A stretch of DNA of 64,000 bases, taken from the NCBI GenBank assembly GCA_976551045.1, contig CDPCPM010000029.1, forward strand, positions 6,944,001-7,008,000, written 5' to 3'. The position numbers and the translations under genes were made by a program. This DNA is from Glaucostegus cemiculus (taxonomy: Eukaryota). Of this stretch, positions 13,259-63,440 are shown in pieces (position 1 is the stretch's first letter; every line of letters starts with the position of its first letter). The notes under the pieces are model-generated. The model was given only the letters and a program-made list of their open reading frames with translations, did no database searches and had not been told where the DNA came from.

Positions 13259-13259
<1 letters not shown>

Positions 13260-23849: not shown

Positions 23850-25829
23850 GAAAAACACGATGGTGCTGGAGGAACTCGGCAGGCTGGGTAGCATCCGTGG
23901 AGAAAAGTAAGCTGTCTGCGTTTTGGATCAGAACCCTTTCTCAGGCCTGAAAATAGGAAAAGGGGAAGCCCAATATATAGTGGGGGGGGGAAGCAGAGCA
24001 GTGATATGTGGACAGAAGAGGGGAGGCGGGTGGGCACAAGGTGGTGATTGGTAGATGCAGGTAAGAGATAGTGATAGGGAGGTGCAGGGAGAGGAGGAGA
24101 GAGCAGATCCAACAGGGGATGGGTTAAAGGTAAGAAGAGTGAGGAAAAAAGGTAGAAAAAAAGAGTCTAGGAAAGGGAAGAAGAGAAGCAGCATGGTGGA
24201 GGGTGGGGGTTGTGGGGAAGAGGGGTGGGGATTACCTAAAGTGGGAGAATTCATTATTCATGCCATTAGGCTGCAAGGTTCCAAGATGGAAAATGAGGGG
24301 CTGTTCATCCAGTTTGCACCAGGAATTCTCTTGGCAACAGAGGAGGCCGAGGACTGTCATATTTCTGATAGTGGGGGAGGGGGAGTTGAAATGACTGGCA
24401 ACGGGGAGATGCAGATTGTGGTTATAGACAGAGTACAGGTGTTCTGTGAAATGGTCATCTAGTTCACGTTTGGTCTCACCAATGTAGAGGAGGCCACACT
24501 TGGAGCACCAAATGCAGTAGATGATATTAAGGAGCTGCAGGTAAATCTCTGTCTCGCCTGAAAGGACTGTTTAGGTCCCTGGATGGAGGTGATAGAGGGG
24601 CAGGTATTGCACCTGTGGTGAGGGTGGTGGAAAGTTCCCGGGGTGGGAGCAGGATGGGTGGGGGGTGGGTGGTGGTGAAGGAGTGAACTAGGGAGTCAGG
24701 GAGAGAGCGGTCCCTGTGAAAGACAAAGGGGTGGGGAATGGAAGGTATGCTTGGTGGTGGGATACTGTTGGAGATGGCAGAAACGGCAGAGAATGATATG
24801 TTGGATACGCAGGCTGGTGGGATGAAATGTGAGGACAAGGGGGAGCTCTATCCCTGTCGGATCTGGGGGTGACAGTGGAGGTGCAGGAAATGACAGGGAT
24901 ACGGGTGTGAGCTCTCTCGATCGCAGTCGGGGGAAGTCCCGGTTAGAAAAGAAGTTGGACATCTCGGACATCCTGGAGTGTCCGATCTCTCTGCGACTCC
25001 CTAGTTCACTCCACCCCCCCCCCACCCATCCCACCCCGGGAAATTTCCACTATTCCTGCCACTGCCCCTACACAACCTCTATCCAGGGACCCAAACAGTC
25101 CTTTCAGGTGAGACAGATGTTTACCTGCACCTCCCTTACTATCATCTACTGCATTCAGTGCTCCAAATGTGGCCTCCTCGACATTGGTGAGACTAAACGC
25201 AGACTAGGTGACCATTTCACAGAACACCTGCACTCTGTCTGTAACTGCAACCTGCATCTCCCTGTTGCTAGTCACTTCAACTCCCCCTCCCACACTATGA
25301 CTGTCCTCAGCCTTGTCCAATGCCAGGAGAATTCTAAGCGCAAACTGGAAGAACAGCACCTCATTTTCCATCTCAAAACTTTGCAGCCTATTGGCATGAA
25401 TATTGAATTCTCCCACTTTAGGTAATCCCCAACCCCTTTTCCCACAACCTCCTCCACCAACCATACTTCTTCTGTTCTTAGTCTCTTTTTATTAACTACA
25501 TTTTTCCCTTTCACTTCTTACCTTTAACCCATCCCAGGTGGATCTGCTCTCCCCTCCTCCCCCACACCTGCCTATCATTATCTCTTACCTGCGTCTACCT
25601 CTCACCACCTTGTGCCCACCCCACCTCTTCTCTTTTGTCCAACTATCACTGGTCTGATTTTCCCTCCAATATATTGGGCTTCCCCTTTTCCTATCTTCAG
25701 TCCTGAAGAAGGGTCCTGACCCAAAACGTTGACCACCTGCTTTTCTCCACAGATGCTGCCTGGCCTGCTGAGTTCCTCCAGCATCATAGTGTTTGTTCAT
25801 CTAGATTCCAGCATCTGCAGTCTTTTGTT
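23850..25829. mobile_element. Penelope-like element in inverted arrangement: minus arm ~23850-24980, plus arm ~24981-25829
   Basis: GIY-YIG-like IIYCIQCSKCGLLDIGETKRRLGDHFTEH...PVASHFNSPSH...QPIGMNIEF on plus with a mirror copy on minus; TSD tttctt(t/c)ttctgaat at 23835-23849 and 25830-25844. Confidence 0.9.
25700..25733 (+). ncRNA. Degenerate minimal type I hammerhead ribozyme in Penelope pLTR
   Basis: GTC-CTGAAGA-A-GGGTC ct GACCC-(A)AAAC-GTT-GAC; the G of GAAA is replaced by A. Confidence 0.6.
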
Positions 25830-26184
25830 TTTCTTCTTCTGAATCTATTCTCCCAATTCCAGGTTTTCCCCTTGTCCCAAGGGAAACACCATCTCAGCAT
25901 CTGTTTCGTCAAGCCCTTTCAAAAACTTGTATTTTTCAATTTGTTCACCTCTCGTTCTTCTAAACCCTAATCATCATAGGCCCAACCTGTTCAATCTTTC
26001 CTCAAGTCCCAAATAGTTCATCACAGGAATCTAGCAAATGAACCTGCCTTTTCCAAGGAAGTTAAAATGTGTTGTCACTTTTATTGTTCTTCATCTGCTG
26101 ATTGTCATGTATCACCTTCACTGACACAATAGAGGAAACTGTTATCATGTTTGGGTGATGGAGCTATCATGCTGAGATGTGATA

Positions 26185-26475
26185 TTTATTTATTAGTCAC
26201 ATGTACTTTGAAACACAAAGTGAAATGCATCCTTTTGCATTACTGAGAATGTGCTGGGAGCAGCCTCTAAATGTCACCGCTATTCCAGCGTCAATATAGC
26301 ATACCCACAACTCCTAACTTGTACGTCTTTGGAATGTGGTAGGAAACCAGAGCACCCAGAGGAAACACACCCTGACACATAGGGAGAACATATAAACTCC
26401 TTACAGAGGGAATTTAACCCAGGCTGCTGGTGCTGTAATAGCATTACACCAACTGCTACACTATCATGCCAGCCC
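26185..26475 (-). mobile_element. V-SINE-type element
   Basis: tttattagtcacatgtac tail, ggaaaccagagcacccagaggaaac core, tRNA head on minus. Confidence 0.85.
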
Positions 26476-26695
26476 TTCATGGAAAGTGCATGTGAGTGTG
26501 TGAACCAAGAGCTGTGGGTATGAGACTTGTAACAGTATTATTGATGTGATGGTGAGGTAGAACTTGTGCATGTTAGAAGTGGCTCATAATTGATGGAGGT
26601 TATATTGACATTTACTTATGGAGGAATAACAAAATAATTAACAGATGAGGTCATTATTCCAGTTTAGAGGGAGTACCTTTGATAGCTCGTCTGAC

Positions 26696-27965
26696 ATCAG
26701 AATCAGTTTTATTGTCACAACCATATACACACACAGTATGCATAGGAGCAAGATACCATCCTCCACAGGTGCACGTCACTTTCAATATTGAACAGAAGAG
26801 ACACAGACACAGAGACACTGAAAAACATTAAAACCATGAAAATTAAATTAAATCTTGCAGCTTAAATAAATAGTTTTAAAATGAGCAAACTGGCAGCGGA
26901 CATTTAAAGTGCTGGTGCGTTTCTGAGCGCCTAGTATCCTTTAGTGTTGGCAGGAGAGATGGAGGAATGAGAGAGTTCACAGATCTGATGGCTTGTGGGA
27001 AGAAGCTATTACACAGCCTGGTCGTTCTTGCCTTGATGCATTTGAGCCTTCTTCCAGATGGCAAGAGTGTGAAGAGATGATGGGAGGGGTGAAAAGGATC
27101 TGACATTATATTTTTGGCCTTCCTAACACATCAGTCCTTGTATATGTCTGCGATGGAGGGTAGTGAGACACCTATGATCTTCTCTGCTGCCCTTACTATC
27201 CTCTGGAGGGACTTTCGTCCAGAAGCTGAGCAGCTCCCAAACCAGGCAGTGATACATTGAGTTAGGATGCTCTCAATAGCCCCTCTATAAAAGGTTTTCA
27301 TTACCGAGGGATGGGAGTTCACTTTCCTCAGTCTCCGCAGGAAGTAGGGGCGTTTCTGGGCTTTCTTAGTGAGGGCCGTGGTGTTAGTGGACCAGGTCAG
27401 ATCATCAGTGATGTGCACCCCCAGGAACTTGGTGCTGCCTACTTGTTCTACAGCAGACCTGTTGATGGTCAGCAGTGCATGCACACGGCGACCTCTCCTG
27501 AAATCCACTATCATCTTCTTGTTTTTTTCCCACATTCAAGGAGAGGTTATTGTTTCTGCACCACATGGCCAGTTGCTTCACCTCCTCCCTGTAGTCTGAC
27601 TCATTGTTGGCCGTGACAAGACCCACCACTGTCGTGTCATCAACGAACTTAACAATGTGGTTAGAGCTGGATCTGGCCACGCAGTCGTGTGTCAACAAGG
27701 TGAACAGGAGTGGGCTGAGCATACAACCCTGCGGGGAGCCAGTGCTCAGTGTGATGGTGCTCGAGGTATTTTCACCAATTTTGACTGACTGCGGCCTGCA
27801 AGTGAGAAAGTCCAGTAGCCAGTTGCAGAGAGGTGTGTTAAAGCCCAGTGCGCTCAACTTGCTGATCAACTGTTGTGGGATGATGGTATTGAATGAGGAG
27901 CTGAAGTTTATGAACGTTAGTCTGACGTACGAATCCTTCTTTTAAGTGGTATAGTGCAGAGTGCA
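26696..27965 (-). mobile_element. Rex1/Babar-clade LINE, 5'-truncated RT fragment
   Basis: ORFs [16 protein letters not shown]...[13 protein letters not shown]...[31 protein letters not shown]; ctgattctgat tail. Confidence 0.9.
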
Positions 27966-29319
27966 GTTACTGTTACTTCTTACTGTTTCCACTGAAATTC
28001 ATTGCTGTTTCTTCCCAATGCATCCTGTGAATGCATCTGGAGGTCCTTCTGCCTCCTAAGATTTTTCTTCCATTCTGCCTTTTCCATCACTGGCTCCTGC
28101 ACATATCTTCAGAAAATCTTGGTGCACATATTCTGTCCTGTTCAGCCATCCTTCAACCATCGACGACAAATAAAGGGCTGCCATCAACCACAGGAGGCCA
28201 ATCCCCTTTAGCATGGTAGTCATTTGCAATGTTGCCCTCCTACTGTTGTAGGCAACAGGGAGTAGCGTATGGAGCTTTAGCTACATGCAACAGTCATGTA
28301 AACTGTGTGTTCATCACTGCAATGAGGGTCAAAGGTTAATCACGCACAACAATCCTTATGTCTATTCTCTTGTAACATTCTTTCTTTTACATCAGTTGTT
28401 TAGATTCAGGCAAATAACAGATGCAATGGTGTATTCATGCTGACACTGTGAATATTTATTCTGTCCTACTTATTTCTTGTTACATGACCAAGCTATTTAT
28501 GTTACACTCATTTTTACCAAAAGAGTCGCCTCATTCCCACATCAAAGAATATTTCCTTTAGAAATGTGCTAGATTTCATTATCATCCACATCAAACATAA
28601 AGGCTTAGGGCAAAGGTACAAAGATTTTAACAATCAATAATAAGCATAAAATTACTCAGACAAGTGCCAAAACAATGAAAGCTAACAATATAAAAACATT
28701 ATTTGTTATAAATGAGAAATAATACACTATGCCTCACAACTATGCTTTTGATTTAATGGTCTTAGTATTTGTTGAGCATTGTTAGCAGATTCCATACAAT
28801 AGCAACAAAGGGTCCAGGTCCAAAAGCACTGTTTATGATTCTTGCATGAGTGGTTTTTAAAATAACAGGTTTTATTACAGTGGCTGTCTCAGTCTTCTTT
28901 TTAATTGTATATGACATGCCAATAACACAAACAAGTTTCCAGGCATTGACTGCGTCCAAGAACTCTTTGTGACATCAGAGCAGAAGACCTGAAGTCACCA
29001 GCTCCTGACCTCTGTGCCCCACCAGGCAGCTACATTACCTTCAACACTTTGGAATACTTTGACATTAAAAGGGTCTTTGTATTATTCTTGTACTATGATG
29101 GGCTGAAAAATGCTGGCTGTTCTGCTGTAAACTGACTGCATTTCTTCATGTAAATGCTGCCAAGTTAGGGATTCCTTGAAACCCAGAACTTGCTGCTGGC
29201 TCTTTGCTGGCAGCCTCTAAGTTGCGTTTGGATATTAAGGTCCTCGTGGAGTCCATCAGTGGAGCACAATTGTGCTGTGGTTCCTCAGCACAAATGCTGG
29301 GAAACTGCCTGACTGGGGA

Positions 29320-29357
29320 ACTGATCCTGCACCAGTTCAACCTGGTGCAGGATCAGT
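29320..29357. repeat. Perfect 16 bp hairpin
   Basis: actgatcctgcaccag-ttcaac-ctggtgcaggatcagt. Confidence 0.9.
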
Positions 29358-32300
29358 GAGTCTATTTAAGTCAGTGGTGAACAACAGTTACGAAAAAGAA
29401 AGTATTCCGTAATTAACATTCTTTAAAATTAATTCGGTTCACTTCATCTTTTTCAATGACTTGAAGGTGTTGTTAAATGTTGTCAGTGTTTAAATATGTT
29501 TTACATTTTTAATGTTATTCAACTGATTTTAACAATTTCTGAATGATTTTGAACACTCTAAAGCATTCAGAGTTCCGGATGTGTTAGCCAGGGGGTAGCT
29601 TCGCTGGCTGTCAAAATATTTTCAACAGTTTTTGTGGGTAGGGCTCATTCTGGGCCACCCACGTTATGGTACAACATTGTTCAAAGCCCAGACTCTGGAG
29701 AGCCTCACCATGTAGAGGATGGTGCTTGCCATCCAGTCATCACTGGTGAATCAGCATTGGGTAAATACACACTGAACATGTGGATCGGTAGACAGCATAG
29801 GTGGCTCACAGCTGGCTTCATCTTCTGACCCAATGTAATTTTGTGCTTACATTGTATGTAGTTTGCATGTTATTCTGAGGCCATAGTTTATTAGCTTAGA
29901 AGTTCTATCACATAGTGCAACATTTTTATCCAATGTAGTAATAGCTTTATATCTGAAATTCACATTAGATACATGTGATTGGTAATGCTGAGTATACGTT
30001 ACAGTTTGAGAAATTGCAGCACATCCTGCTGCAGTCAGGAGTTGCTTAAAAATGGAAGCTGGTGAGATTAATTGTGTGACTGATACTTCTGTCGTGGTAT
30101 CCCGGCACAACATTTAATGTGCAAACAACATGAGTCCTGAATGCAGCAGCAAGACTTAATGAGCAACTGAGGGTCTGCTTCTGGCTAAATGGCTTGTTGA
30201 TGGCACAATATCTGGTCAGCTATGAGAGACAAATTGGTACTTATCCTCATCACCCGGTGATGGCTCATCTGTCCCAGAGAGGCCCCACATGTTGAAGCCA
30301 CCACAGGAGCATGTGCAGCAAGTTCTCCACTACTCAAGTAAGTTTGGGACTAACTGTGCAATTATGGGGTTTGTGATTCCAATATAAACAATACAATACA
30401 TGGGGCATCATACACATTAGAAAATTGCTCCCCATGGCCACCCATGAAACTAGCACAGGGCTCTTGGCTGGCATTGTTTAATGTGCATTCTAGGTGTGCA
30501 GTTGAATTTCAAGGCCTTTCTTTTCAGTCTTTGCCTTGGCGTTACTTGCTTTGTCTATAGTACATTAACAATTGCTGCTCGTGCATGTGTACAGGATTAT
30601 ATTCCATTTGCCTACATTTCTTCTGGTGTTAAGTGTGCTAAAATAATTAAATCCTGGAATAGATTAATTTCTATAAATCACCTTTTAAGCTTTCTAACAA
30701 GAATATACATTGACAATAAAATCAGCAACAATGACCACTGCCTTTTTCAGGGAACAAAGCCCTAACAAGGCATGCATTTAATGGATTTCTGCTTTGAAAA
30801 TGTAAAACACATCTTACCAAGCAACATAAATTTAATAAGCTCTCAGCATTGCTTTTAAAAACATTACTTTGCACGAACACATCAAAACATTGAAGTGTCC
30901 ATTTATATTTGATAAATCTAAAAAGGAAAATGCATTTATGTGTTGAGCTTACATTTCCATGCTGAACATGCCAAAATCAATATATTTCTCTAAAGAAATG
31001 TGCAATCATAACAACCCCACTACTCCATCTCATATCTATCAATGTTTTTCCCTTTTGCTTTTGTGTTATTTTTCCTTTGTTGTACAATGTGTAATGTAAA
31101 ATCAGGCAGCTTACCATGTGGCATAACTTGTACTCCAGTCGAATCTGTGAATAGGCAAAACTGTGGCAAATGGATTTCTGTGCACACACGTGTGGAATAA
31201 TTCACTTTGGATCTGAAAAGGATGAAACAATATTTCCAAAATATGAAAGGCTACAAAGAGTAGATTTTAAAAAATGTATCCATCATGTCTGGAGATCTAC
31301 CATACAATGGGATAGACTGTGTTACAGGCTGGACAAAAACTTTGGTTAGGCCACATCAGAGCATGATGAACAATTCTTGGCACCACACCTTAAAAATAGT
31401 ACATGAGTCCTCAAGCAAACTTAATGAAGATTTGATGAAATGGGATCAGTGTGGATGGACAACAAGGTCAGCATGAACATGGAATGAAGGGTCTGTTTCT
31501 GTCTTGTACAACTCCATGACTTTATGACTAATGAGAATGATACAAAATTATTTGTTTTTAACATTAAACATTCCATACAGCAGCTGCTGTGCATTGTAAT
31601 CTGCTTCTGAAATTACAACCCGCTGCAGTGAAAAGAACCACATTTTGAAAATAGAGTGAAACACTGAGCCATTGCAGTATTATGAACTATCAATTTAGTG
31701 CATGTGATTGAGAATGAATGCCTATCTATAGGATGCCAACTATTACGTTACAAAGAGTACTCATAAGAATTTAGATTGATTGTTTGATCAAAATTTTCAA
31801 GATATTAAGGCAAACTATTGGGGTAGATGGACAGAAAGCATTGTTGGACAAGATGCATTACTTCCGCTTCTTGGTTCCAATGTTCCCAAAGAAAATCCAG
31901 TCCCTTCGTGCAAAAGAGGTCCCTTGATCTAAAAACTTACACTGTTACACATTATAAGCAATTGTACATTGATCCCTGAATAGTTGAATTAAATACCTCT
32001 AAAATGAAAATAGATTTCATGTAACGCTTTAGTGTCCATATTTTATCAACAATTTTTTCTAGGTGAACAGAAATTCTGTGCAATTTTTTAATCCTGGGAA
32101 TCCCTAAGAGATTAAAAATAAACAATTCAATTTATCACAGTTTATAACACCCAAGTCCACATGAAGTTAAATTTCAGGAAAGTATTTAAGTCTGTTACCT
32201 TGGCCGTGAATGTTAATCAATGCTCTATTCAATGGCCAGGCAAGAACCCTCAAACATACGGAAAGTATGGATCTCAATTAAACTGTTTTTGACTCAAGTT

Positions 32301-33907
32301 GAAATCACTGGTATTTAAAAAAAGTCTAGCCCATTTTGGGTTAGCTTCTCCTCCCTTTGTGCAACTGAAAACGAGCTTTATTACAAGAGTATATTTAATC
32401 ATCTCATATGGTTTTCTGTGATCCAAGGTTTTCGCATTCTACAATCAGGTCGTCAATGCAGCCTGAAATCAATGATCATGTGTTCTAGTTTTTGAAGATT
32501 CAAGGAACACAAAGTTCTGCTTTATTAGTGAGGTATTCAATAAATCCCAGGAAAGTTATTAAAAGCTGTATGGAATTAAGGCAGGGTCAAATTAATTTCT
32601 AGGCACAGTGCTGTCTTTGAAATGCATAAGCAAAAAGTGCTAATTACTTTTACTGAATATATTTTTATTTTGCATGCATCGAATGCATTAACCTGAAATT
32701 TCGATGAATTAAATTTGATATGCCTTACATACTGATTCCATTGTTCCTATAGACTAACAATTTAATTCAAACTTATGTGGGGGTGGGGGTGGGAATTAGA
32801 GCAATAAGTCTGAGTGAAAAGATAGAGGTTAAGTCAAGTGAGTCGAAGAGGAAGAACAGGCAGGGCCAAGTTAATGAACACAATGGGTCTGACAGTCTGA
32901 AGTGTATTTATTTTAATGCAAGGAGTATAACAGTTAAGGCACATAAGCTTAGAGCCTGGATCAGCACATGGAACTATGATGTTGTAGCCATTACAGAAAC
33001 TTAGCTGAGCAAAGAACAGGACTAGCAGTTCAACATTCCAGGCTTTGGATGCTTCAGACATGACAGAGAGGGCTCTAAAAGAGGTGGGAGAGTTGCATTA
33101 CTGATTAAGGAGAATGTCACAGCTGCACTTTGAGATGACATTTTGGAGGGCTCATCCAGCAAGGCCACATGGGTAGAGATCAGGTGCAAGAATGGTGCAG
33201 TCACTATGATGGGGTTATACTATTGTCCTCCCAATAGTTAACTGGAGATAGAGGAACAATATATGTAAACAGATCATGGAAAAATGTAAAAAAAAAAGTG
33301 GTTGTAGTTGGTGATATTAACTTCCCTATTATTGACTGGCACTCCCTTAGTGCCAGGGGCTTAGATGGAGCAGAATTTGTTAGGTGCATCCAGGAGGGTT
33401 TGTTGAAACCAGATGTAGATAATGCAACTGGGAATGGGTGGGGGGGTGTAACCAGACCTTGTACTAGGAAATTAAGTCATTGGGGGAAGCATTTTGGGAT
33501 CATAATTCTGTAAGTTTTAAGATAGTTCTGGATAAGATAAGGCAGCCACGTGTGTGAAAGTGCTAAATGGGGGGGGGGGGCAAGAAGGCTAATTATGTTA
33601 GTATTTGGTAGGAGCTGGGGAGCATAGATTGGGAATGGCTGCTTGAGGGTAAATCTACATCTGACATGTGGGAATCATTTCAAGGCCATCTGGTTAGAGT
33701 TCAGAACCAGCATGTCCCCATGAGGAAGAAAGACAAGGGTAGCAAGGTTTGGGAACCTTGGATGACAAGAGATTTTGTAAATTTGGTCAAAAAGGAAAAG
33801 GAAGCATATGCAAGGTTTAGGAAACTGAAATTGGACAAGGTCCTTGAGGAATATAAAGGAATCAGAAAAGAACTTAAACAAGGAATTTGGAGGGCTGAAA
33901 AGGGGTC

Positions 33908-34205
33908 ATAAGATCTTTATTAGTCACATGTACATCAAAACACAGTGAAATACATCTTTTGCATAGTGATTGAGGGGGGGTGGGGGCAGCCTGCAAGTGT
34001 TGGCATGCTTATGGTGCCAACAAAGCATGTCCATAACTTCCTAACCTGTACATCTTTGGGATGTGGGAGGAAACTGGAGCACCCAGAGTAAGCCCACACA
34101 GACACAGGGAGAACGTACAAACTCCTTACAGACAGTGGCTGGATTTGAACCTTGGTCACTGGTACTGTAAAGCATTGTGCTAACCACTATGCTACTGTGC
34201 TGTCC
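33908..34205 (-). mobile_element. V-SINE-type element inserted in CR1
   Basis: Same family as 18839-19135; flanked by tcat on both sides. Confidence 0.85.
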
Positions 34206-42910: not shown

Positions 42911-43998
42911 TACTAATTGTAATATTTTCTGTATTTTAACCTTTCTGAATTGATGAAACGTTTTTTAAACAACTGAAGAATAGTTCAGAAAGTTCAGTTC
43001 ATCAAAGAATGCACATTTGTAATTATCAACAATAATCTTTAATTCTACGACTATGCAGGAAGATTTGCCTATAGAAATATAGACAAAAGGATTAATTTCA
43101 GTAGTAGGAAAAGAATGAAATCCCTACCAAAGGAGAATACAAGTATTCATTTCGATGATCAATTGTAACAATCAGTGGTCAACATGGACTTCAAATGGGA
43201 AAGTCTTCTTTGAGCAGCTTCATTGAATTTCTTGAAAAGGTAACTGAGAGGAGACAAGCATCAAGAAGTGGAAATAATTTAACTATGTAGAAGGAATAGT
43301 AAAGATATAGGATAAATAGTGAAGATACAAGGATGAGTAGCATAGAGGGTTAATTTTTGCATGATAATTAACAGTGAAGATGCGTACTCAGTCTTTGGTC
43401 AATTATTACTCAGTCCCTATGAGTGTCTGCAGGAACAGAAACAGGATTATAGATTAGAGATAGGGAGGCCAACGTAAGCTCTCTCCTAGACCTCTTGAAG
43501 GAAAGATTCAGAGACAGTCGGACATTCACTGGAACACGATTAAAAAAGAAGAATAGTGGGAACTGGTCCCACATCAGTGAGTAATCAGGACTGAGATTGT
43601 ACAAGAGCCCCATTTTTACTATAAATGTAGCAGAGACCATCGAGGCCCACTTGTCGACCACCAGTGCAGAAATGGATACAGAGAATCAGCAGTGATACAG
43701 CACCCAATCATGGCAGGTTAACACATTCTATTTCCACAACGCAGCACCCCCAGCCCTTGGTGGAGGCACAAGGCTTGTGATGTCAACACTGATTGATCAC
43801 GAGCCCATCTTCACTTGGATGGTTCCGTGCTGACAAGAGATGATGTTGTAAGATGCTGTACCGTGCCTTGGTTATGCACAAAAATGCCATACTCTGTACA
43901 GTTGGGGAGAATGCAGAAACCACAGTTGATAAACTGCAGGATATAAAGCAGATGATTAAGGACAGCAGAATGTTGGAATTGAGATTTCATGAAGATCA

Positions 43999-44185
43999 GA
44001 AGCAATAAACAATCTGCTGGAGGAACACTGTGGGTTGAGCAGCATCTGTGGGAGGGAAAGAACACTTCGGGCCAAGGAGAGGGTTTCAACCTGAAGCATT
44101 CTTTTCCTCCCACAGATGCTGCCTGACCTACTGAGTTCCTCCAGTGGAGTGTTTGTGACTCCAAATTCCAGCACCTGCTTCCACA
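43999..44185. mobile_element. Short fold-back Penelope-pLTR-derived element
   Basis: ctggaggaacact...gcagcatctgtgggagg pairs with cctcccacagatgctgc...gagttcctccag; aagatca flanks both sides. Confidence 0.75.
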
Positions 44186-49559: not shown

Positions 49560-49715
49560 GTAAATCAAAAAATCTGCAGCTGCTGGAATCACCTTTCTTT
49601 CGCAGTTTTGATGAAGGAGTCTCGGACCTGAAATGTTAACTGTTCCTCTTCCTACAGAGATGCTGCCTGGCTGGCAGAGTTTTCCCAGCAATTTCAGGTT
49701 TTAATTGTACTGCAT
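49560..49715 (+). mobile_element. Penelope-pLTR-derived mini-element with hammerhead motif
   Basis: aatctgcagctgctggaatc ... agatgctgcctggctggcagagttttcccagca. Confidence 0.7.
49603..49642 (+). ncRNA. Near-canonical minimal type I hammerhead motif
   Basis: CAGTT-TTGATGA-AGGAGTC tcg GACCT-GAAA-T-GTT-AACTG: 5 bp helix I, helix II; C3>U and C15.2>U changes. Confidence 0.6.
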
Positions 49716-50060: not shown

Positions 50061-50959
50061 CCTCATGAGGGATACCCCCTCATCTACCTCGTCTACACAA
50101 CTGCATCTAGTGATCATCAAAATCCCCATATCCAGATTACTGGAACCCTCCAGGCCATAACCATCACACCCACCCATTGACTATCCTAATCACTGATCGC
50201 AGACCTCAGACACACCAATATTGCCTGACTCCCCTCGCGATTCACAACTCTCTCCTCTCCACCCCATTCTAATCCATTTCTCTTCCTTCTCATTCCTGAC
50301 CTCTCATCCCTACATCCTCAGGCACAACTGAATCTGCAAACAGCAGACCCATGATCATGACAGTCACGAAGTGACTGCGTGATGCACCTCTGCAGAGTCC
50401 AATGGATTTCTTAGCTCCCACATTTCAATTTTTGAAAGTCCACATTTTGAAGTATATTTGTTTTAAAGCTTAAGTGGGTCTCAGTGATTGAAATTAAGGA
50501 CAATGCTATAACAAATTATTAATGTAGAACACGTTAGGATTTTTGTCCAAAATACTTCTTAAAACTTCCGCATCTGAATATTGTAAGAAATATAGGAAGA
50601 TGCTGGGATGAGGCTGAATCATTCATACCACTCTTTTTTGGTGCCCTATGTTCACTGCCCAGCACTTATGTCCTTTTCCAGGAAACACTGGATTTCCTAG
50701 GCAATAAATTGAGGAAAGCAGTGGTTCATCTCAGGTAGAAGTCAGCATTTACTTGCACTTTGAACACCCCTAAAATCCACGCTACTGAAATTCTGGCAGG
50801 CAGATTATGCCAGATAATAGGTACATTTTCCACAAAATTTATTCTCTGATAGACAATGCTAACTGAAAAAATATCCAGGATATATCGGATGAACCATTTA
50901 TAATTTTATATCGCTTATTTCCCCTTCACTGAACGCCATACTGGAGATCAAAACAGAAG

Positions 50960-51072
50960 AGCCATTACCCTGAAATATTAACACTGTCCTATCTCCACAT
51001 GTGCTGCCTGACCTGCTGAGTATTCTGTTTTTCTTATTTCAGACTGCTTGCATCTGCACCTTTTATTTTTGC
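50960..51072 (+). mobile_element. Penelope pLTR fragment
   Basis: cctgaaatattaac...ctccaca..tgctgcctgacctgctgagtatt. Confidence 0.65.
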
Positions 51073-51179: not shown

Positions 51180-52065
51180 ATTAGGGAAGTCATGTTGCAG
51201 CGAAAACTTTGATTAGGCCACATTTGGAGTGCTGTGTGCAGTTCTGGTTGCCAATTTACAGGAAGGACGTGGAGGCTTTGGAGAGGGTGAAGTAGAGGTA
51301 CACCAGGATGTTACCTGGATTGGAGAGTATTAGCTCTCGAGCGGCTGGGCAAACTTGGATTGTTTGCAGTGGAGTGTAGGATACTGAGGGGCAATCTGAT
51401 TGAAATATGTAAGGGATGCAGAGATGGGGTTGATATCAGAATCCTTTTTCCAGGATGAAAGTGTCAAATTCCAGAGGCAATATGTTTAAAGTTGGCCTGT
51501 TTAAATAGGTTGTGTAGCAGCGCCAGTGACCTGGGTTCAATTCCACAGCTGTCTGTAAGGAGTTAGTATGTTCTCCCCATGACTACATGGGTTTTCTCCG
51601 GGTGCTCCAGTTTCTTCCCACATTCCAAAAAAAAGACGTATGGGTTAGGAAGTTGTGCGCATGCTATGTTGGCGCCAGAAGCCTGGCGATACTTGCGGGC
51701 TGCCCCTGGCACATTCTCAGACTGTGTTGGTTGTTAATGCAAAAAGGTGCATTTCTCGGTGTGTTTTGATGAACATATGACTAATGAATATTATAAAAAA
51801 AGTGAGGTGGGGAGCTTAAATGAGGCTTACAAGGCAAGTTTTTCTTTTACACAAAGGGTGGTAGGTGCCTAGAATGTGCTGCCATAGGGAATGGTGGAAG
51901 CAGATAAGATAGCAATGGTTAAGAAGTACTTAGACAGACATATGAACAGGCAGGGAAATGAGGGATATGGACGTGCAGACAGATGGGACTAATTTAGATT
52001 AGCAGCATGATCGGGGCAGACATCATGGCCCAAATGGCCTGTCCCTGTGCCGAAGTGTTCTATGT
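51180..52065 (+). mobile_element. CR1 3' part interrupted by a SINE
   Basis: gtgcagttctggttgcca...ggaggctttggagagggtg; tail ...tgttctatg. Confidence 0.85.
51505..51790 (+). mobile_element. V-SINE-type element
   Basis: cagcgccagtgacctgggttcaattcc head, core, catatgactaat tail. Confidence 0.8.
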
Positions 52066-52822: not shown

Positions 52823-53371
52823 CTGGCAGATTCCAAAGCAGCAGGAATTAAGGGTTACGATCTGCCTTCCTGATGTCAGTAATAGGTCAGGTAGGAGACG
52901 TGACACAATAGTGCCTCAATTATCATGCTTCAGGATTGACACAGTCTTTCATAACAATCGTCAGGGGATGATTAGTGGGCAGTGCCTGATGCGTAAGGCA
53001 GCACATTATGATGGTGTATCACAGGAAAGGTACTGGCCAACAGTTTATTTTTTTTGAGATCACTTTAAACAATTTCTTTTCTTTCAATGCTGTTGAGCAC
53101 CCTCCTCTTGCTGGCATCCTGGCTTATTCTTGTTAATTTCACTAAGCTAATATTACTGTATCCCCAGTTTGAAAACTGGCTGATTTTTATCTTCACTTCA
53201 TCTATTCACCCTGGTTTGTGACAAACTGCTAATTTGAGTGTAGGTTACTGATGCAGGGTGGCACTCAGGTCAAAGACTACCTATGATTTGATTGAATGCT
53301 GGAATAGGTGTGGAGTACCAAATGACCTACCCTGTTTCTATTTCTTATATCGTCATGTCACACTGAAGGGA

Positions 53372-53668
53372 AGATAAGATATCCTTATTAGTCACATGTA
53401 CATGGAAACGCAGAGTGAAATACATCTTCTGTGTAGAGTGTTCTGGGGGCAGCCCACAAATGTCGCCACGCTTCCGGTGCCAACATTAGCATGCCCACAA
53501 CTTCCTAATCCATACATCTTTGGAATGTGGGAGGAAACCGAAGCACCTGGATGAAATCTGTACAGTCACAGAGAGAACGTACAAACTTCTTACAGACAGT
53601 GACCGGAATTGAAGCCGAGTTGCTGGCGCTGTAATAACATTATGCCAAACGCTACATTACCGTCCCAG
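53372..53668 (-). mobile_element. V-SINE-type element (gatatc-tailed family)
   Basis: agataagatatccttattagtcacatgtac...gtgggaggaaaccgaagcacctgg. Confidence 0.85.
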
Positions 53669-54904
53669 CCATATCTGCAACAAGGAGTTCCCCTCTACCA
53701 CAGTTACTGTTCAGAGGCAAGTGCTACACACCTGTCGCCACCTGGAAGGAGCCCCTTTGCCCAGGAAAGAGCTCCATTTTCAGATACACTCATTAGCATA
53801 ACTTCCTTCCAGCAGTTAGACACTTAAATATTTAGAGAATTAGAAGAGTAAACATTTTAATTAAGGTCAAAAGCATGTTACACATGTGTAGGAGTACTTT
53901 TTGAACTAGATTTGGCATTGCAGTAAATAAATACTCCACAAGTTGTCAAACCAATGCAGAATGAAGCTGTAATTTTCAGGGCAATTCATTATGGAGCCAG
54001 GTTAGATCCTGATTCCAGCCTAACATTGCATATTCAGCATATCAATGAAGCAGAAATTAATTTAATGTAACTCTAAATCTTCAATGTAAATAGACAGCTG
54101 ATTTATTAACTCAATACTAATTTCAAATGTACAAATTAGACACCATTGACATTAAAAATGCACATAATTGAACAGAATTTCCATCTTTATTCTCTGTTGG
54201 CAACACAGGTGCCCTGAGAAAGCTTCTGTTAAAGAACAAGTTGGCTCCAGCTGCAGGAAAAATGTGCCATATCATAAGAGAATTTCATTGCAGAAACTCA
54301 AATGTGTGGTTCTCAGTACAGATGAAAGCTGCCAGTATATTACTTTTAAAAGCACGATTAGAGGTCTTGTGAGAACTAAGGGTCAAAGATCAGTGACAAA
54401 GGTCTTGTGAGGCAGTAGTCACACTTGGTTGACAACACCTCTACATGATGTGCTGCAAGCAGTGCAGCATTTAGAAAAAGCTAAAGGGACCAGACTGCAA
54501 TTTTTAGTGCTCTCCATTTTGCACGCCTGCCATGAAACAATTTCACCTCCGTAGCACCATTAACAACTAACGAGTTGACTAACATGTTCCTGCAAAAGCT
54601 GCAGAAAATAGGGAAGAGCAAGAGGGTCATTTTCAAACTCACTGCCTGGTTTGTAACCTTTTGGAGAGAGTTGTTCATCCTTGTGGAATAATTCTGATTT
54701 CTGTTTCATTGCTATCACATTTTATTTTAGGTCTGCAGAAACTTGAAGATCCTTCTTCAGATCTTCTCTCCTATTAAGCTGTATTGCTGTGGGATAGGCT
54801 ACTGACCAATATCCACAATAAGCTCACTCACATTCATAAGTACCTTGGTTATATTTCCTTCCATCTCATTTCCTGGAGGGCAGCACAGTGCCGCACCGAG
54901 TAGA

Positions 54905-55720: not shown

Positions 55721-55760
55721 TGGGTTGTATTGGTATGTCCTGAGGAAGTACAAGAGAAAA

Positions 55761-57335
55761 AAATGGTGCCGCAGAGGGGTGACTTACTGTGTGCAGCTCC
55801 TAAAAGAATTATCAGATACTCCCGTTTACAACCGCTATAGCTGAAATCTGCAGTCCCAGACAATGCAGTAAGTAACATTATTTAAAGTAAGTTAAGAGAA
55901 CCAGAGATCTTTAGAACTAACAGACTGAGGACGTCAGGCCTCCCAGCGAGTGAGTGCAGCAGCTGGAAGCTCAGGGAATGTCTCCATTGTTTCAGGAAAC
56001 GTGGTTGCCAGGGAGAGTTGCAGGTAAAGCTGAAAATGCAGGGTCCTTAGGAGCCCCCTCCCTACCATCCTCTTGGCTAATATCCAGTCCCTGGAAAATA
56101 AAACTAAAGACCTCAGAGCAAGACTGCAGTATGAGAGGGGCAGCAGGGACTGTTGTGTGCTCTGCTTCACAGAGACATGGCTCACCCCCAGACACAGTGT
56201 TCTAACCCAAGGGCTTCACCATCCACCACATGGACCGGGTATCAGGTAAAGGCAGACGTGGCAGTGTTTGATTCATGATGAACTCATTGTGGTGCACAGA
56301 CGTGGTGGTTCTGTCTCAGTGCTGCTCCCCTGACCTGGAACATCTGACGGTCAAGGATTGTTTGTTTTATTTGCTGAGGGAGTTCTCCACCGACGTCCTG
56401 GTAGTGGTGTACATTCCACCCCTGGCAAACGTCAAGCTGGCACTGGAGGAGCTGAGCACCATGATCAGCAGTCACGAGACAGAGCACCTTGGTACCTTCC
56501 TGATCATCACAAGGATCTTCAATCAGGCCGGCTTGAAGAAGTCTCTGACAAACTACCACCATGTCACTTGTGGAACCAGAGGAGCCAACGTACTCGATCA
56601 CTGTTACACCACCATCAAGAACGCTGACTGTGCTATCCCGCACCCACACTTTGGCAAGTCCGATTACGTGGCTGTGTTCACTGAGGGTCAGTGGTAGAAA
56701 GGGTGAGCAGCTTCAAGTTCCTGGGCATCGATATCTCAGAGGATCTATCCTGGGTCCAACACGTTGATGCAATCATGAAGAAGGCATGCCAGTGGCTCTA
56801 CTTCATTTGGAGTTTGAGGAGATTTGGTTTGTCACCAAAGACTCTTGCAAATTTCTACGGATATACAGTGAAGAGCCTTCTGACTGGTTGCATCACTGCT
56901 TGGTATGGAGGTTCCAATGTGCAGTATCGAAAGAGGCTGAAGAGAATTGTAGATTCAGCCAGCTCCATCACGGGCATAACTCTCTCCACCATGGAGGACA
57001 TCCTCAAGAGGTGGTGCCTCAAGAAGGCGGCATCCATCACCAAGGACTCTCATCATTGAGGATACGCCCTCTTCTCATTACTACCATCAGGGAGGAGGTA
57101 CAGAAGCCTGAAGACCCACACTCAATGTTTCAGGAACAACTTCTTCCCCTCCACCAGATTTCTGAATGGTCCATGAACCCATAAACACTACCTCACTATT
57201 CCTCTTCTGCACTTTTTTTTTGTTTTGGTAACTTTTAGTTATTTTTTTTGTCTTACACTGTACTGCTGTCACAAAACAACACATTTCACAACATATGTCA
57301 GTGATAACAAACCTGATTCTGATTCTGAATCTGAA
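55761..57335 (+). mobile_element. Internally deleted Rex1/Babar-clade LINE (5'UTR and APE fused to ORF C-terminus and tail)
   Basis: APE motifs PTILLANIQSLENK, CFTETWL, VYIPP, LDHCYT, GKSDY joined at ~56680 to VERVSSFKFLG...; tail ctgattctgattctga. Confidence 0.85.
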
Positions 57336-58359
57336 ATACCAAAAAAGGAGAGAGAAATTATGAAATACTGGAAAAGCTGATTTTCTGAAATTGTTGAATT
57401 CAATGGTGGATTCAGTCCTGAAGTTAGTAATGTGCCAAGTTGGATGACAAGACGATGCTCCTTGAGCTTACACTGAGCTTTATTGAATCAGTGTCTGTGG
57501 GAAGGAGGATCAAAATGACAGCCAACTGCAAGCTCAGCAGACTGAATGGAGATGTTCTGCAAAGCAGCGACCCTACCTTCTTTGTTTTCCTCATGTAAAG
57601 GAAACCACACCATGCACCAAATGCAGTAAACAAAATTGCAAGTATATTGTTGCTTTACTTTGAAGGAGCGTCTAGGTCCCTGAAGGGAAGAGATAAAAAG
57701 GCAGGTGTTGCAATTTCTGCAGTTGCAATGCAGTGCTGTGATAAGGGAATGGATGTTGGTGGAGATGAAAGACTGGGCCAGAAAGTTGAGGAGGGAATGA
57801 TTCCTTCAGAATACTGAAAGGAGAGGTGAAGGGAAGACATGCCTGTTTCCCGTATCTCACACTGACTCCTTTTGTTCTCTCTGCCCACCACCCCCCACTC
57901 CCTAACCACCTCTGCAAGCTAAAACTTGTTTCTTTTCTGACTTTTTCCACATCTGGTGAAAGGTTGGCAACCTGAAATCTTAACTCCGTTTCTCTCTCCA
58001 CAGACACTTGTTGACATGTTATTTCCAGCCTTAAATGTTTTAATCTCAGGTTTCCAACATCTGCATTGTTTTTCTTTCTGATCATCTTGGATCCCCAAAG
58101 AACAAAGCTGCATATAATTGTATAACCATGATAGTTGCTGATTGTGTCAAAGAAAGAACTTGCATTTGGACAACACAATATGACCTGATCCAAGGAGAAT
58201 TAATTAAGTGCAAAGCGAATTCCTTGTACTGTGTTGTGTGAAAAGATTCTTTTGGAATCTTAAAGATGGAGGGCTCTGGACACAGACTTTGATTTTAAAA
58301 ATAGTTTAATCACAAAGGCCAATGTGGGGACAGAATGAATGGGAACAGAAGCACACTTG

Positions 58360-58456
58360 CACGTGCGCGCGCACACACACACATACACACGTGCACAGGA
58401 GACCACAAACATGGGGGGGACTCACAACGAGGATGAGATACACACACACACACAAA
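58360..58456. repeat. Interrupted (CA)n/(CG)n microsatellites
   Basis: gtgcgcgcgcacacacacac and cacacacacacac. Confidence 0.85.
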
Positions 58457-59559
58457 GACACAATAAACATGGTAGAGCTTATCAAAGGATAAACAACTCA
58501 ATGCCTGAATACCTTGACCCAAACAAGCATTGGCTCTAACACACCCTGGAATCTGACTAAGACACTCCCAAACCACATGGTGGTGCACACTCTTACCCGT
58601 AGTCTCTACAGCATTGTCTCATCATTCCTGGGGCAGTCAAGAGAGAGTGTGGGCAAGGGGATTGCAACAATCTTTACAGTGCTGTAAGCTGGGTAGAGCT
58701 GGCCAGGTGATTTAGACAGGCCAATGGTTTGGGGGCAAGGACAAAGGTGTCTGCCAGGGCCAATGGTCAGGCAGGTTCAGAAACAAAGGTGCTATCCAAG
58801 GCCAATCCCTATGCCCACACCTGATGTGTGGGGTATAGCCACACCTTGATTGACAGTGGTGTCACTTCTGATCCGAGGAACAATGCAGTCCTCCGACCAG
58901 AGGGGTCAGTGTTGTGCCTGTCACGTGGCAGCCATGTGCTCTCCTACTACATACTGTGTAATTTCAGGAGATATCACATGTTTTTTTCTCACTTATTTCC
59001 ACTACCTGAGACATCAGATACTCCTTCCAGGTGAAATGTCTCTAAATTCAGGATATTGTATTCACTGCTGTATTTCATGAATATGAGTTCCATTGTATTC
59101 CATGTTGTGGAGTCTGAAAGCAAATTAGGTGACTGCTTAAGCAAAAAAAAATCTGTTCAAACCTTTGAGCGTCAGGCTGTTGAAGTGCTTCAATCTTCTG
59201 CTTCCCTCAGACTCTGCCTCTCTGCTTTTATCCTCTAATATTATTTCAATTAATTTTGATGATGCACATAATCTTTTGATCTGACACTTCACAGCCTTCT
59301 AGATTTAACATTGTCAATAAATTCACATCAGAATCAATTCTTAGAAATAAAACTTTGTGAATTATTCTTTTATTCCTGCCAATTCTTCCCCTTGATCCAT
59401 CTTATTTTATTACATGCCCCATCCACATTTGCCTTGTGCCATCATCAGTTTTGGAATTACATCAGTTTTGCATTCCAACCTAGAGCAGATGTTCTTTCCT
59501 TCAACACCCACGCCCACTTTCTTTGCCTCTTCAAGTTCCTTTCAGTTTCTTGAACAATC

Positions 59560-59800
59560 CCTTCAATCCCATTCCACTACTTATTTTCCCTGTAACCTAT
59601 TCCCTCTTACCTGCCCATTAAATCCACCATTCTTCCACTGGCCATTCACACTCAGGGGAACTTTCAGGAGCCAATTAACATAACAAGCTAATTATTTTTG
59701 AGACATGGGAGGAAACCAGAGTACCCAGGGGAAAACCGTGCAATCACAGGAAGAATGTTCAGACTTCAAACAGACATTAGTGACCATGATTGATCTTGGG
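59560..59800 (-). mobile_element. Degraded SINE
   Basis: gccaattaac...tgggaggaaaccagagtacccagggg. Confidence 0.65.
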
Positions 59801-60782
59801 TCAAAGTATCTCCTGTTACTATTCTATCCTAGGATAGTGTATTTTGCAGCTGTCTGCAACATATTTTTCTCATTTTACTAAAAAGTCAGTGTGACCAATT
59901 TTCTTTGAGGTTGCAAACTGGTGCAATCAACCATGTCTATTTGTGACCCCTTAATTGGTGATTTGGTCTTGGAACTGAGGGTCTGCTGGGGAAGTGATAA
60001 GGGAGTCAAAAGGAGAATTTGGAAGTTTGGGATGGTCAGTGGCCCGATCGAGGAGTCAGGTATAGAGGGGCAATCAGCGAGTTGTGGTACTGTGATCAAT
60101 GTATGGGGGTTGTTGGTTGAGTCTGAAGAAGAGGTGAGGGAAGCTAACCTGAATGGGGCTCCGAGCTCCCACTCTAAAATAGACATTGGCTTTTGTTTTT
60201 CTGTAATAGTAATTAATAGAATTTATTTCTGGGACAAAAATCACCCATGCATATAGGCATTTGGATAAATTATGGTGAAACAGTTATGTTTTAGTTTTTT
60301 CAGTGTCTATGGATAATCCCAATGTACTTTTACTTGGCAAGGACGTGCAATGGTCAACTTACACTGGTGCAGAACAGCTGCAAGTATTTTGTCTCCGGGT
60401 TTTAACACCATACAGAAATTATCAGGGATGCAGAAAAGCTGAATGAGAAATAGACATTTTCTCACAATGGCAGGAGTTCCTTCTTTCCTGAAACTAGAAA
60501 GAAAATATTCTTTAAAGACTTTCAGATATGTTGCTAAATAAACTGCAGTTTGTCAAAAATGACAAAACTGTTTACATGACCCATGTGATTATTATTCCCT
60601 CTCTCCCCATCCATGTTTTCTATTAAAGTTCTATAACTGACCATATACAGATTGAGTAATGTTATTAATGCTAATGCTTCACAATTTTACAGGTTGTCCT
60701 CCCGGCATTTCAAATGCTCTTAAAGATCCATTTATGTCTTCTCCTCTACAAGCCTTTAAAAAAAGTCTGTCAGCCTTTATTA

Positions 60783-61126
60783 TGGACATCACAGTGGTGC
60801 ATTTGGTAGAGCTGCTGCCTCACAGTGCCAGAGAGCTGGGTTCAATCCCGACCTCCGATGTTGCATGTGTAAAGTTTGCATGTTCTCCCTGTGACTGTGT
60901 GGGTTTCCCTCATCTGCTCTTCTTTCCTCCCACATACTTAAGACGTGTGCATTGGTAGGCTAATTGGCCACTGCGAATTGTCCCTGGTCTGGTGAGTGAT
61001 AGAATCTGGGGGGAGTTGATGATAATGTGGGGAGAATAAAATAGGATTACTGTAAATGGGTGGTTGAGGGATGGTGAGGATTCGTTTGGCTGAAAGGCCT
61101 GTTTCCATGCTATCTGACTCTATGAC
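60783..61126 (+). mobile_element. HE1-like SINE with CR1-type tail
   Basis: gctgctgcctcacagtgccaga...gggttcaatcccg head; tail ggcctgtttccatgctatctgactctatgac. Confidence 0.85.
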
Positions 61127-61137
61127 CTGGAGACATG

Positions 61138-61271
61138 AGAGAGCAATGAACAGTCTCCTGGATGAACTCAGTCCTGTTGCAGGGCTTGGACCTGAAACGT
61201 TGACAATCACTCTCCTCCCACAGATGCTGCTCGACCCACTGAGTTCCTCCGACAGATTGTTTGTTGCTCTC
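61138..61271. mobile_element. Short fold-back pLTR-derived element with decayed hammerhead
   Basis: Ends gagagcaatgaacagtct / agattgtttgttgctctc; internal GTC-CTGTTGC-AGGGCTTGGACCT-GAAAC-GTT-GAC. Confidence 0.7.
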
Positions 61272-61464
61272 TCCTCATAGACACTGCCCAAGCTGCTGAG
61301 TATTTCCAGCATTTTCTGATTATTTTTAATTTCAGCTTTTCGGCACTTGCAATATTTTACTCCTTTCATTTTAGTATTGTATTTTGACTGCAGACCTTCA
61401 GGTTCTATACCCACTTTTCATTCTGCACAACTAAACTAATAAACTTTTTTGGTTTTAACACAAA

Positions 61465-61768
61465 TCTTTAGCCAGAGGGTGGTGAACCTGTGGAACTCCT
61501 TACCACAGAAAGCAGTGGAAGCCAGATCATTGGGGATATTCAAGAAGGAAATAGATAGATATCTAATTGGTCAAGGTATCAAGGGATATGGAGATAAGGC
61601 AGGGATTTGGACTTAGAATAGTAGGTTTTTTTTTGTTTTTTTTTGTTTTTTTTGGATTTTTTTCCTTAACCTCTTTTTTTCCCCACCCTCCCTTCCCTTT
61701 GGAGCAGACTCGATGGGCCGACTGGCCTGCTTCTGCTCCATTATCTTGTGATCTTGTGATCTTGTGAT
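61465..61768 (+). mobile_element. CR1 3' tail with (atcttgtg)n end
   Basis: FSQRVVNLWNSLPQKAVEA coding remnant; three atcttgtg units. Confidence 0.85.
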
Positions 61769-62699
61769 GGTTGATGATTTGCAATATAGAGAACTTTAAA
61801 AAAAAATATAGGCATAATATGGTTGGCTGTAATGTTGGCATTTGTAAAGTGAGGGATATTATACTTTGTTGCACATCGCTGCAATAGTTTGGAGCGCAAA
61901 AGATTATCAGGAATTGGACTAGATATCTAACTCTTTTTTTTCTCATAGCACTGGAGGCAAAACTCAGGAGTTTTCCAAATTAGAATGTAAATTGATACCT
62001 TTTTCTTGGAAACAAAGAAAAATACATTGGTTCCAGCCAGTTTCAGTAGTCTTTATTAAAAAGGCAAAGATAACCATAAACGGACGACCTTTGTGGTTTT
62101 CCCAGATGTGGAGCATACAGAATGGAGAATCACAATCATTCAGCACATTTCAAAGCCACTAGGACAGAAAGCATGAGCAATGATTATACCTTCTTTATGT
62201 AAGTGATTGGAACATCAACTTAATTATGGAACTGGCTGTAATGTGATCTGCTAATTTTATCAATCTAAGTTTAAGGTTTTAATATTCACGTTTTCTAAAT
62301 AATTCTGCACAAACCTTTGCCCATTAATAATATACTACCTAGGCTGGCAAAATAGGTTGACTTAATAGCATACACATCTACTCTCAGTTTCTTCCAGATC
62401 TCCCATGCCAAAATGTGCACTAGAAAATATTGTCAAAACCTCTATGTCAATATATTCGGTCATTGTCACATTTTCATGTAGCATTATCTGACATGTTGAA
62501 TTAAGTTGACTTGAAAATTATTCAGTGAAAAAAAATGAAACAAATGAGGCAATGCATGTAAACAGTGAGTTAATGCTTGATGACAGATGATTCAATGTGT
62601 AATTATAAAATGGACAAACCTGACATAGTCCTGTGAATAGGATCATCATCTCATTGTGATATATACTAGGAGGGGAACTACATAAGAATAATGATATAT

Positions 62700-62826
62700 A
62701 TATATATTTTTATTTTATTTACAGTGTGGTAACAGGCCCTTTCGGCCCAACTACTCCGCGCCGCCCATTTTAAACCCCCAAATTCACCTACCCATACGTC
62801 TTTCAGAATGTGGGAGGAAACCCACA
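62700..62826 (-). mobile_element. Partial V-SINE-type element (family of 3925-4180)
   Basis: Reverse complement of ~4060-4165. Confidence 0.8.
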
Positions 62827-63239
62827 TTGATTGATATTGATTGATATATTGATTGATATTATCCCACTTAGTCAAAATCTGAGGAGTTATAATCATTCTT
62901 TTTGCACTTGATATTGAAGCATTGGGCTGAAATGTTCAAACCTCTCGTCTCTGAATCGTTAGAGAAGCACTGGTGATATTGTCCTTGAGGGTCAGTTAAT
63001 CTGTGACTTCCACACCTTTGCGTTGAAATCTAGAATTCAGAGGTGAGCTGTAGGTCGGACGCTGATCTATCTGAACTTCTGGTTCATCACTGTACTCAGC
63101 ACTGAGACCAGTGCTAACATGTGAGTATCTGAAGAAATCTGTCTCCTACTTTAACCTCCTGTAGGCGCAAAGTTATCAATTTCTTTTACCATGCACTGCG
63201 CATTCAACCTCTTGCAGTCTCCATTCGATCGCAGACATT

Positions 63240-63440
63240 CCTTTTTGTTCTCTCCAACCCACCTCTTTCTCTGCCACTTTGCAATTACTTCTTTCTCTAA
63301 CTTTTCAGTTACAATAAAAGGTCGTTGACCTGAAATGTTAGTTGTGTTTCTCTCTCCACAAATACTGCCTGGACTGCTGAGTATTTCTAGTGTTTTCTGT
63401 CTTTATTTCAGATTATCTACATCTGCACTATTTCATTTTT
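63240..63440 (+). mobile_element. Penelope pLTR fragment with decayed hammerhead stem
   Basis: AGGTC gtt GACCT-GAAAT-GTT followed by ctctccaca...ctgcctggactgctgagtattt. Confidence 0.65.

Follow-up and report, generated by a model that had tools for sequence, protein, structure and literature searches.

Which kind of element leaves the same hammerhead-like motif scattered over a few tens of kilobases of a cartilaginous-fish genome, and can the motif still cut? The question is raised by 64,000 nucleotides of Glaucostegus cemiculus (contig CDPCPM010000029.1, positions 6,944,001 to 7,008,000), here called the window. An earlier note had listed eight sites in it as minimal hammerhead ribozymes at the termini of Penelope-like elements (PLEs). 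Judged from the sequence, all eight represent a minimal hammerhead ribozyme (min-HHR) in mutated form and lie in the pseudo-long-terminal-repeat (pseudo-LTR, pLTR) of a Neptune-type PLE. They likely stem from old, truncated insertions and are likely inactive; we give this reading a probability of about 0.88.

The hammerhead copies and their state

All eight sites are present within a few bases of the coordinates listed in the earlier note. In an alignment they occupy one and the same position of a single repeat module and are homologous. The module consists of a pyrimidine tract, CAG, the hammerhead-like 34–40 bases and a conserved box plus tail of about 110 bases; its downstream part is common to all eight copies. 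A profile built from the eight copies detected seven further partial copies of the module in the window (E < 1e-6). The relics are the following, with the descriptor score explained below.

25700–25733, plus strand: best-preserved min-HHR relic; helix I GTC/GAC, CTGAAGA intact, an extra A, 5-bp helix II; descriptor score 21/22; sole core deviation G12>A at 25723; ACGT palindrome kept; predicted cut after 25730
23914–23947, minus strand: min-HHR relic in the minus arm of the inverted insertion that also holds 25700; G8>A, G12>A, U16.1>C
61171–61204, plus strand: min-HHR relic, a short solo copy starting at the CAG before helix I; A6>U, A9>C; an inverted 3′-module piece lies before it
49603–49642, plus strand: min-HHR relic with 5-bp helix I and bulged helix II; C3>U, C15.2>U; about 12 nt upstream lies the end of an inverted tail piece
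57948–57984 (57953 motif), plus strand: min-HHR relic with broken helix I; A6>G, C15.2>U, G16.2>C
63306–63344, plus strand: min-HHR relic with five core deviations; helices remain paired
10396–10432 (10430 motif), minus strand: min-HHR relic with five core deviations and damage in both helices
55273–55308 (55308 motif), minus strand: min-HHR relic; C3>U, G16.2>A; helix II paired in 3/5; small deletion past helix I
43996–44178, no single strand: head-to-head 3′ modules of the pLTR, joined inside the hammerhead region; partial plus-strand motif at about 44072–44102
2518–2650, plus strand: further decayed copy with a hammerhead remnant
50950–51070, plus strand: further decayed copy; just the 3′ half of the motif is left

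By majority letter the core agrees with the hammerhead at 14 of 14 scored positions (89 of 112 cells), C3 being present in just 4/8 copies. The window majority contains CUGANGA and GAAA with U16.1 and H17, a set that is complete in no single copy. Together with the type I topology and the adjoining PLE open reading frame (ORF) remnants, this bears out the assignment to the minimal type I hammerheads of PLE termini. None of the eight copies is intact; each has one to five core deviations, and no site reaches 22/22 in the descriptor. That every copy carries core mutations and that the copies are probably relics is therefore correct. An extra nucleotide between A9 and 10.1 is found in all eight (an A in seven), and A10.1 is common to four. 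The ACGT palindrome (15.1–16.1), which stands in place of helix III, is given in the earlier note as a general feature of PLE hammerheads. It holds for the majority letters, yet is intact in only two of the eight copies. The window contains no tandem array of units with intact hammerheads and no two intact same-strand motifs in tandem. The earlier note had named 49603–49642 for a cleavage assay; it is a poor choice because of C3>U, C15.2>U and the bulged helix II.

Position 3 deserves a remark. In the five older-lineage copies C3 is replaced by T in three and by A in one. With the remnant at 2527 included, the older lineage shows T three times, A twice and C once (sites 49608, 55303, 10427, 63311, 2527). 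This is not a CpG site, and the numbers are small. The long hairpin formed at 43996–44178 gives weak microRNA-like Rfam matches.

How often would such a motif arise by chance? The search suggested earlier was run on the window with a generic, family-independent descriptor of the minimal hammerhead with 22 scored features, the geometry of which was fixed after the copies had been seen. The control was 100 block-wise dinucleotide shuffles. At 18/22 or better the window contains seven sites, as against 0.56 ± 0.79 in the shuffles, none of which reached seven; five of them are listed copies and two lie elsewhere (15041, 12387). At 17/22 or better there are 13 sites versus 5.8, eight of the 13 at repeat copies. 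Copy 10430 scores below 16.

The host element

Remnants of endonuclease or reverse transcriptase (RT) adjoin four of the eight copies, in direct or inverted arrangement:

24976–25844, plus strand: plus arm with GIY-YIG endonuclease remnant (25048–25425), then pseudo-LTR
23825–24998, minus strand: minus arm with RT thumb/linker with CxxC, a frameshift, GIY-YIG endonuclease remnant and pseudo-LTR
57379–57880, minus strand: older PLE linker/endonuclease remnant, inverted relative to the pseudo-LTR with the 57953 motif (tblastn E 2e-18 to 1e-13)
10718–11165, minus strand: weakly recognisable PLE ORF remnant, on the strand of the 10430 motif and upstream of it (nhmmer E 1.3e-6, tblastn E 0.003)

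The best-preserved locus, 23825–25844, consists of two 5′-truncated arms in inverted orientation, which agree in 700 of 843 aligned bases; each ends with endonuclease, stop, pLTR and hammerhead. The endonuclease piece matches 513 cluster representatives (E up to 1e-10). Of 26 candidates, 13 are longer relatives. Two of these are named, from Mobula hypostoma and Stegostoma tigrinum, and these ray and shark relatives share 55–64% identity with it. The relatives carry a YIDD RT motif, a CX4CxxC linker and GIY-YIG with CCHH; they match PF01541 just under the cut-off (E 3e-4 to 5e-2). The window piece itself has no Pfam GIY-YIG match; GIY-YIG and CCHH motifs are visible in both arms. The linker is complete in six of seven aligned relatives (P0004 lacks the last Cys), and the minus arm keeps CxxC. 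Craig et al. 2021 (PMC8557442) list a C-terminal GIY-YIG with CCHH and a CX2-5CxxC linker as Neptune features. The host element thus appears to be a Neptune-type PLE, a clade call that relies on motifs, the RT core being absent from the window.

Of 11 copies tested, three short ones (61171, 49603, 44076) have an inverted piece of the 3′ module in front of them (0/100 shuffles each), which agrees with tail and inversion structures known from PLEs. For copy 2522 such a piece is borderline (4/100 shuffles). P0004, an annotated protein of the zebra shark, runs through the pLTR, and its end residues are consistent with a translated intact hammerhead core. An isolated PLE RT-thumb remnant without a pLTR lies at 16986–17335 on the plus strand.

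Stem pairing and possible CpG decay

Stem pairs were counted by coordinates, as the automatic alignment offsets helix II by one column between lineages. Helix II, which had been described as differing yet staying paired, is fully paired in half of the copies (25700, 57953, 63306 and 23947, the last with two G-U pairs). The others carry mismatches: 4/5 pairs remain in 61171 and 3/5 in 49603 (bulged), 10430 and 55308. Overall, 33 of 40 helix II cells and 19 of 24 inner helix I cells are paired, in keeping with type I topology, in which helix I closes the motif. Helix I had been read as GTC/GAC or CAGTT/AACTG. Its inner three base pairs are formed in five copies, but the complete CAGTT/AACTG occurs in 49603 alone.

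Pairing is not yet co-variation. When the 3′ letters were permuted among the eight copies, the eight pairs together yielded p=0.07 (0.17 for Watson-Crick pairs only) and helix II alone p=0.50. Of the proposed stem co-variation, what stands is the pair 2.1:1.1 (p=0.018), which is U-A in five copies and C-G in three, of which two belong to the arms of a single insertion. The change has the appearance of real compensation, though it probably happened only once, between two lineages. The pair 10.1-11.1 reads GC in two copies, GT in two, AT in three and AC in one.

For helix II, deamination at CpG sites offers another account. CpG is depleted in the window (observed/expected 0.20), and the dinucleotide 11.1-12 is CA in three and TG in five copies. 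Positions G12, C15.2 and G16.2 deviate in 9 of 24 cases, non-CpG core positions in 11 of 72 (Fisher p=0.04). The helix II variants quoted as compensatory can be produced by CpG deamination; AGGTT-GGC-AACCT would be the expected outcome of two loop-edge deaminations in a 63306-like form. Since p is 0.50 and CpG decay can explain the variants, co-variation of helix II in the window is unsupported. Non-CpG core positions do not differ in divergence from the flank (11/72 versus 68/316, p=0.26). Selection for inactivation or retention of the ribozyme was considered and is rejected for now, as core and flank diverge alike.

Several distinct ribozyme-bearing families had been proposed. The pair 2.1:1.1 and upstream tracts common to 63306, 10430, 57953 and 55308 suggest more than one element lineage, two by these markers, but eight copies define no families.

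The same architecture elsewhere

As a control independent of the window, metagenome contigs were searched with a pattern comprising the core and the base of helix II only, helix I being left out. The pattern found 109 loci (112 matches). Of 110 matches with flanks, 95 go directly into TH, eight do so after a two-base insert and seven do neither. Helix I, though not asked for, pairs at 2.44 as against 1.64 ± 0.14 in shuffles (0/10,000; 36 distinct flank pairs), a test that overstates significance as the matches are related copies of few families. A PLE protein match lies within about 1 kb at 33/109 loci, in 28 of these upstream on the same strand. The loci belong to families other than those of the window and show the architecture to be a conserved PLE feature.

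Where two bases are inserted into the helix III palindrome, the metagenome min-HHRs (L005, L006, L015, L058, L059, L060, L061, L106) resemble the variant of Drosophila virilis. Six matches leading into GCGGG look like chance bacterial matches. The exact downstream pLTR box was absent from metagenome and viral contigs, and its one match in genome contigs is a chance bacterial one without the motif.

Reads of related species

The sequencing runs that were compared stem from related species: those listed contain at most 28% of the words, so that none is likely to be of the same species. One DNA run of 13.07 million reads has 108,107 that overlap a 631-base stretch of the element. The depth implies, per gigabase, about 38,000 downstream boxes, about 10,000 hammerhead regions and about 2,700 endonuclease ends (at least 80% identity; even coverage assumed). 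At 25723, i.e., position 12, G is found in 12,580 of 18,668 DNA reads (67%) and in 65–70% of RNA reads. The loose ends of the reads show GAAAC-GTC-GAC as majority. G12, the palindrome and a GUC site therefore belong to the parent form.

In three RNA runs of a relative, 0.13–0.31% of reads touch the module. RNA reads favour one strand about 3:1 over 25536–25645 (2.7–3.1 at 25580–25601), DNA reads 1.24. If the libraries are stranded, this bias over the upstream pLTR tract may reflect sense transcription.

Some observations concern possible RNA processing. In six of eight copies (25698–25700 and equivalents), helix I directly follows the pyrimidine tract plus CAG, which looks like a splice acceptor. 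A second such tract plus CAG, also acceptor-like, follows the motif (about 25741–25752). A donor-like AG/GTAA spans the ORF stop (25420–25425), with the acceptor-like CAG at 25698–25700 downstream. Among the 15 joints listed of 349 in the relatives' reads, none is a splice or skip joint, and the donor-like AG/GTAA is not evident in their read-through. Opposite-strand joints near 25704–25752 in these reads resemble the head-to-head arrangement at 43996–44178.

Mechanism and alternative explanations

How could such a motif work, and how would it die? By analogy with published work on other PLEs, the parent motif would cut a tandem element transcript after GUC or GUU, i.e., at position 17. Two motifs would pair through their ACGU palindromes and thereby supply helix III as a dimer. 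Lunse et al. reportedly described dimer cleavage. In the analogous systems cleavage is weak, and here, too, it would probably be aided by a protein of the element. Among the published work behind the presumed dimer cleavage is PMC6765202. Inserted copies were likely methylated and then decayed neutrally. The motif carries CpGs at 11.1-12, at 15.2-16.2 and, in one lineage, at 17-1.1. With CpGs at 11.1-12 and 15.2-16.2, G12 and the dimer palindrome would fall to deamination early on, and the same process can make helix II look as if it had undergone compensatory change. The copies probably derive from two or more element lineages that differ in age. Normal activity requires G12, G8, C3 and A6 (core as in PMC7151607), and the window copies are predicted to be inactive.

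Several results weigh against our reading. Hammerhead is absent among the 11 weak Rfam matches of the window (E up to 10). No copy, folded as a single strand, does better than its own shuffles (z −0.41 to +1.22). The majority letters of the 5′ core (positions 3–9) come from the window copies alone, with C3 in doubt as mentioned, and the metagenome loci are less independent of each other than their number suggests. TG at 11.1-12 in the A10.1 copies may be an inherited A-U pair rather than a product of CpG decay. Finally, RNA read starts or ends do not pile up in the three RNA runs. Co-folding of homodimers also gave no hammerhead-specific signal; other pairings dominate the dimers.

The Rfam and folding results, together with a descriptor tuned after the copies had been seen, would suit the view that the likeness is mere chance in a palindrome-rich repeat end. 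This view is already largely refuted by the complete majority core, by the excess of descriptor sites over shuffles and by the recurrence of the same architecture at more than 100 independent loci beside PLE ORFs. One may also ask whether some window copies are working variants (U3, A10.1-U11.1, or G12A with another metal) that cut host transcripts, their stems being under selection. The replacements at C3 in the older lineage, the shared A10.1 and the RNA reads of the relative on the module could be so understood. Natural core variants are indeed known: U3-A8 (PMC4209133) and the metal-dependent exceptions A6C and, as cited there, G12A, the latter with a shift to Zn2+ (PMC7151607). Each U3 copy, however, retains G8 or carries further damage, and the ACGT palindrome is lost in 6/8. 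The pairing does not stand out from column shuffles (p=0.07) and the core is no more conserved than the flank. An intact same-strand tandem pair is missing, as are piled-up read ends. We consider working variants in the window very improbable.

A more serious competitor concerns the parent: the motif might be kept for a non-cutting job, as a protein-binding fold, a promoter or a signal for a splice or 5′ boundary, cleavage being marginal. In vitro cleavage of min-HHRs is low (PMC4209133). For another PLE, ribozyme mutants left in vitro insertion unaffected and RNA-seq ends at the cut site were absent (PMC11167929), just as the relatives' RNA reads show no pile-up of ends. Moreover, the short copies 61171, 49603 and 44076 have their start within the motif or ahead of it instead of where the cut would fall. 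Yet the core and the NUH triplet are kept across distant families while the stems change, which argues for selection on chemistry. The missing RNA ends are weak evidence, because the RNA reads stem mostly from decayed copies. We regard a non-cutting parent as unlikely, though it has the best claim among the alternatives. The reading as decayed copies of a cleaving min-HHR is preferred.

A still bolder combination can be imagined, and as a whole we think it rather doubtful. Cartilaginous fishes would be one of the largest vertebrate reservoirs of hammerheads, at the densities of motifs and end modules estimated for the related species, and these would be rendered harmless by a CpG fuse in G12 and the palindrome. 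The pyrimidine tract plus CAG of the parent would act as a splice acceptor or as an RNA boundary by which the ribozyme is set up, much as in the Penelope of D. virilis, where the intron ends at the 5′ end of helix I (PMC4209133). The older lineage would use an A10.1-U11.1, possibly also a U3 variant.

Other features of the window

Pfam scans of 10 and of 109 of the 155 listed ORFs revealed no host gene, only RT pieces of long interspersed nuclear elements (LINEs). LINE remnants (RVT_1 and ALKBH8_N matches) and a dispersed family of ~300-base repeats, which is probably a short interspersed nuclear element (SINE), occupy the following places:

27131–27941, 56272–57184, 12494–12793: LINE remnants/dispersed ~300-base repeats, first group
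3920–4095, 18839–19136, 26187–26474, 33900–34200, 51518–51791, 53366–53673, 60816–60965: LINE remnants/dispersed ~300-base repeats, second group

Other long hairpins at 13224–13369 and 8833–8965 have weak Rfam microRNA matches far below the gathering score; the former is composed of GT-rich and complementary repeats.

Comparison with known systems

In the accessible literature we found no paper devoted to PLE hammerheads of sharks or rays. Only a preprint on retrozymes touches them; the one chondrichthyan that it sampled has retrozymes with hammerheads (Li, Clavereau, Pollet 2026; bioRxiv 10.64898/2026.07.22.740005). Like the non-LTR retrozymes described there, the window copies are hammerhead units derived from a PLE pLTR. 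Unlike active retrozymes, they are dispersed, non-tandem and non-intact, and so fall outside the definition.

With Poseidon_Ac of the green anole (Frangieh et al. 2024, PMC11167929) they share the hammerhead in the pLTR, stems I and II and the lack of RNA-seq ends at the cut. Poseidon_Ac, however, belongs to another PLE clade, and protein-assisted cleavage was demonstrated there, whereas the window copies are known from sequence alone.

The Neptune elements (PMC8557442) are matched by GIY-YIG/CCHH, by the linker (complete in close relatives), by an inverted 5′-truncated copy next to the pLTR and by inverted tail pieces. In contrast to full Neptune elements, the window holds fragments only.

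The closest counterparts are the min-HHRs which Cervera and De la Pena (2014, PMC4209133) described in the pLTRs of metazoan PLEs, including Neptune elements of fishes, with thousands of solo copies in coelacanth and Xenopus. Common to both are type I topology, the lack of a real helix III, the palindrome (15.2-16.2), the extra nucleotide A9/10.1, a short helix I, the location in the pLTR and the prevalence of solo truncated copies. The window copies differ by a 5-bp helix II, by A instead of G at 10.1 in 4/8, and by core mutations throughout; an exact descriptor would miss them. The host differs, too: it is a cartilaginous fish, and shark, skate, Callorhinchus, Leucoraja and Squalus are not mentioned in the searchable supplement of that paper.

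The class as such has thus been known since 2014. Its extension to likely dead copies in a shark or ray genome adds little by itself. The window teaches, however, that CpG decay can fake compensatory changes in a hairpin, at least in a CpG-depleted vertebrate genome, where it can also account for much of the copy-to-copy variability that PMC4209133 found hard to explain. Moreover, cartilaginous fishes have so very many copies that large alignments become possible, from which the hammerhead positions that the element needs could be measured.

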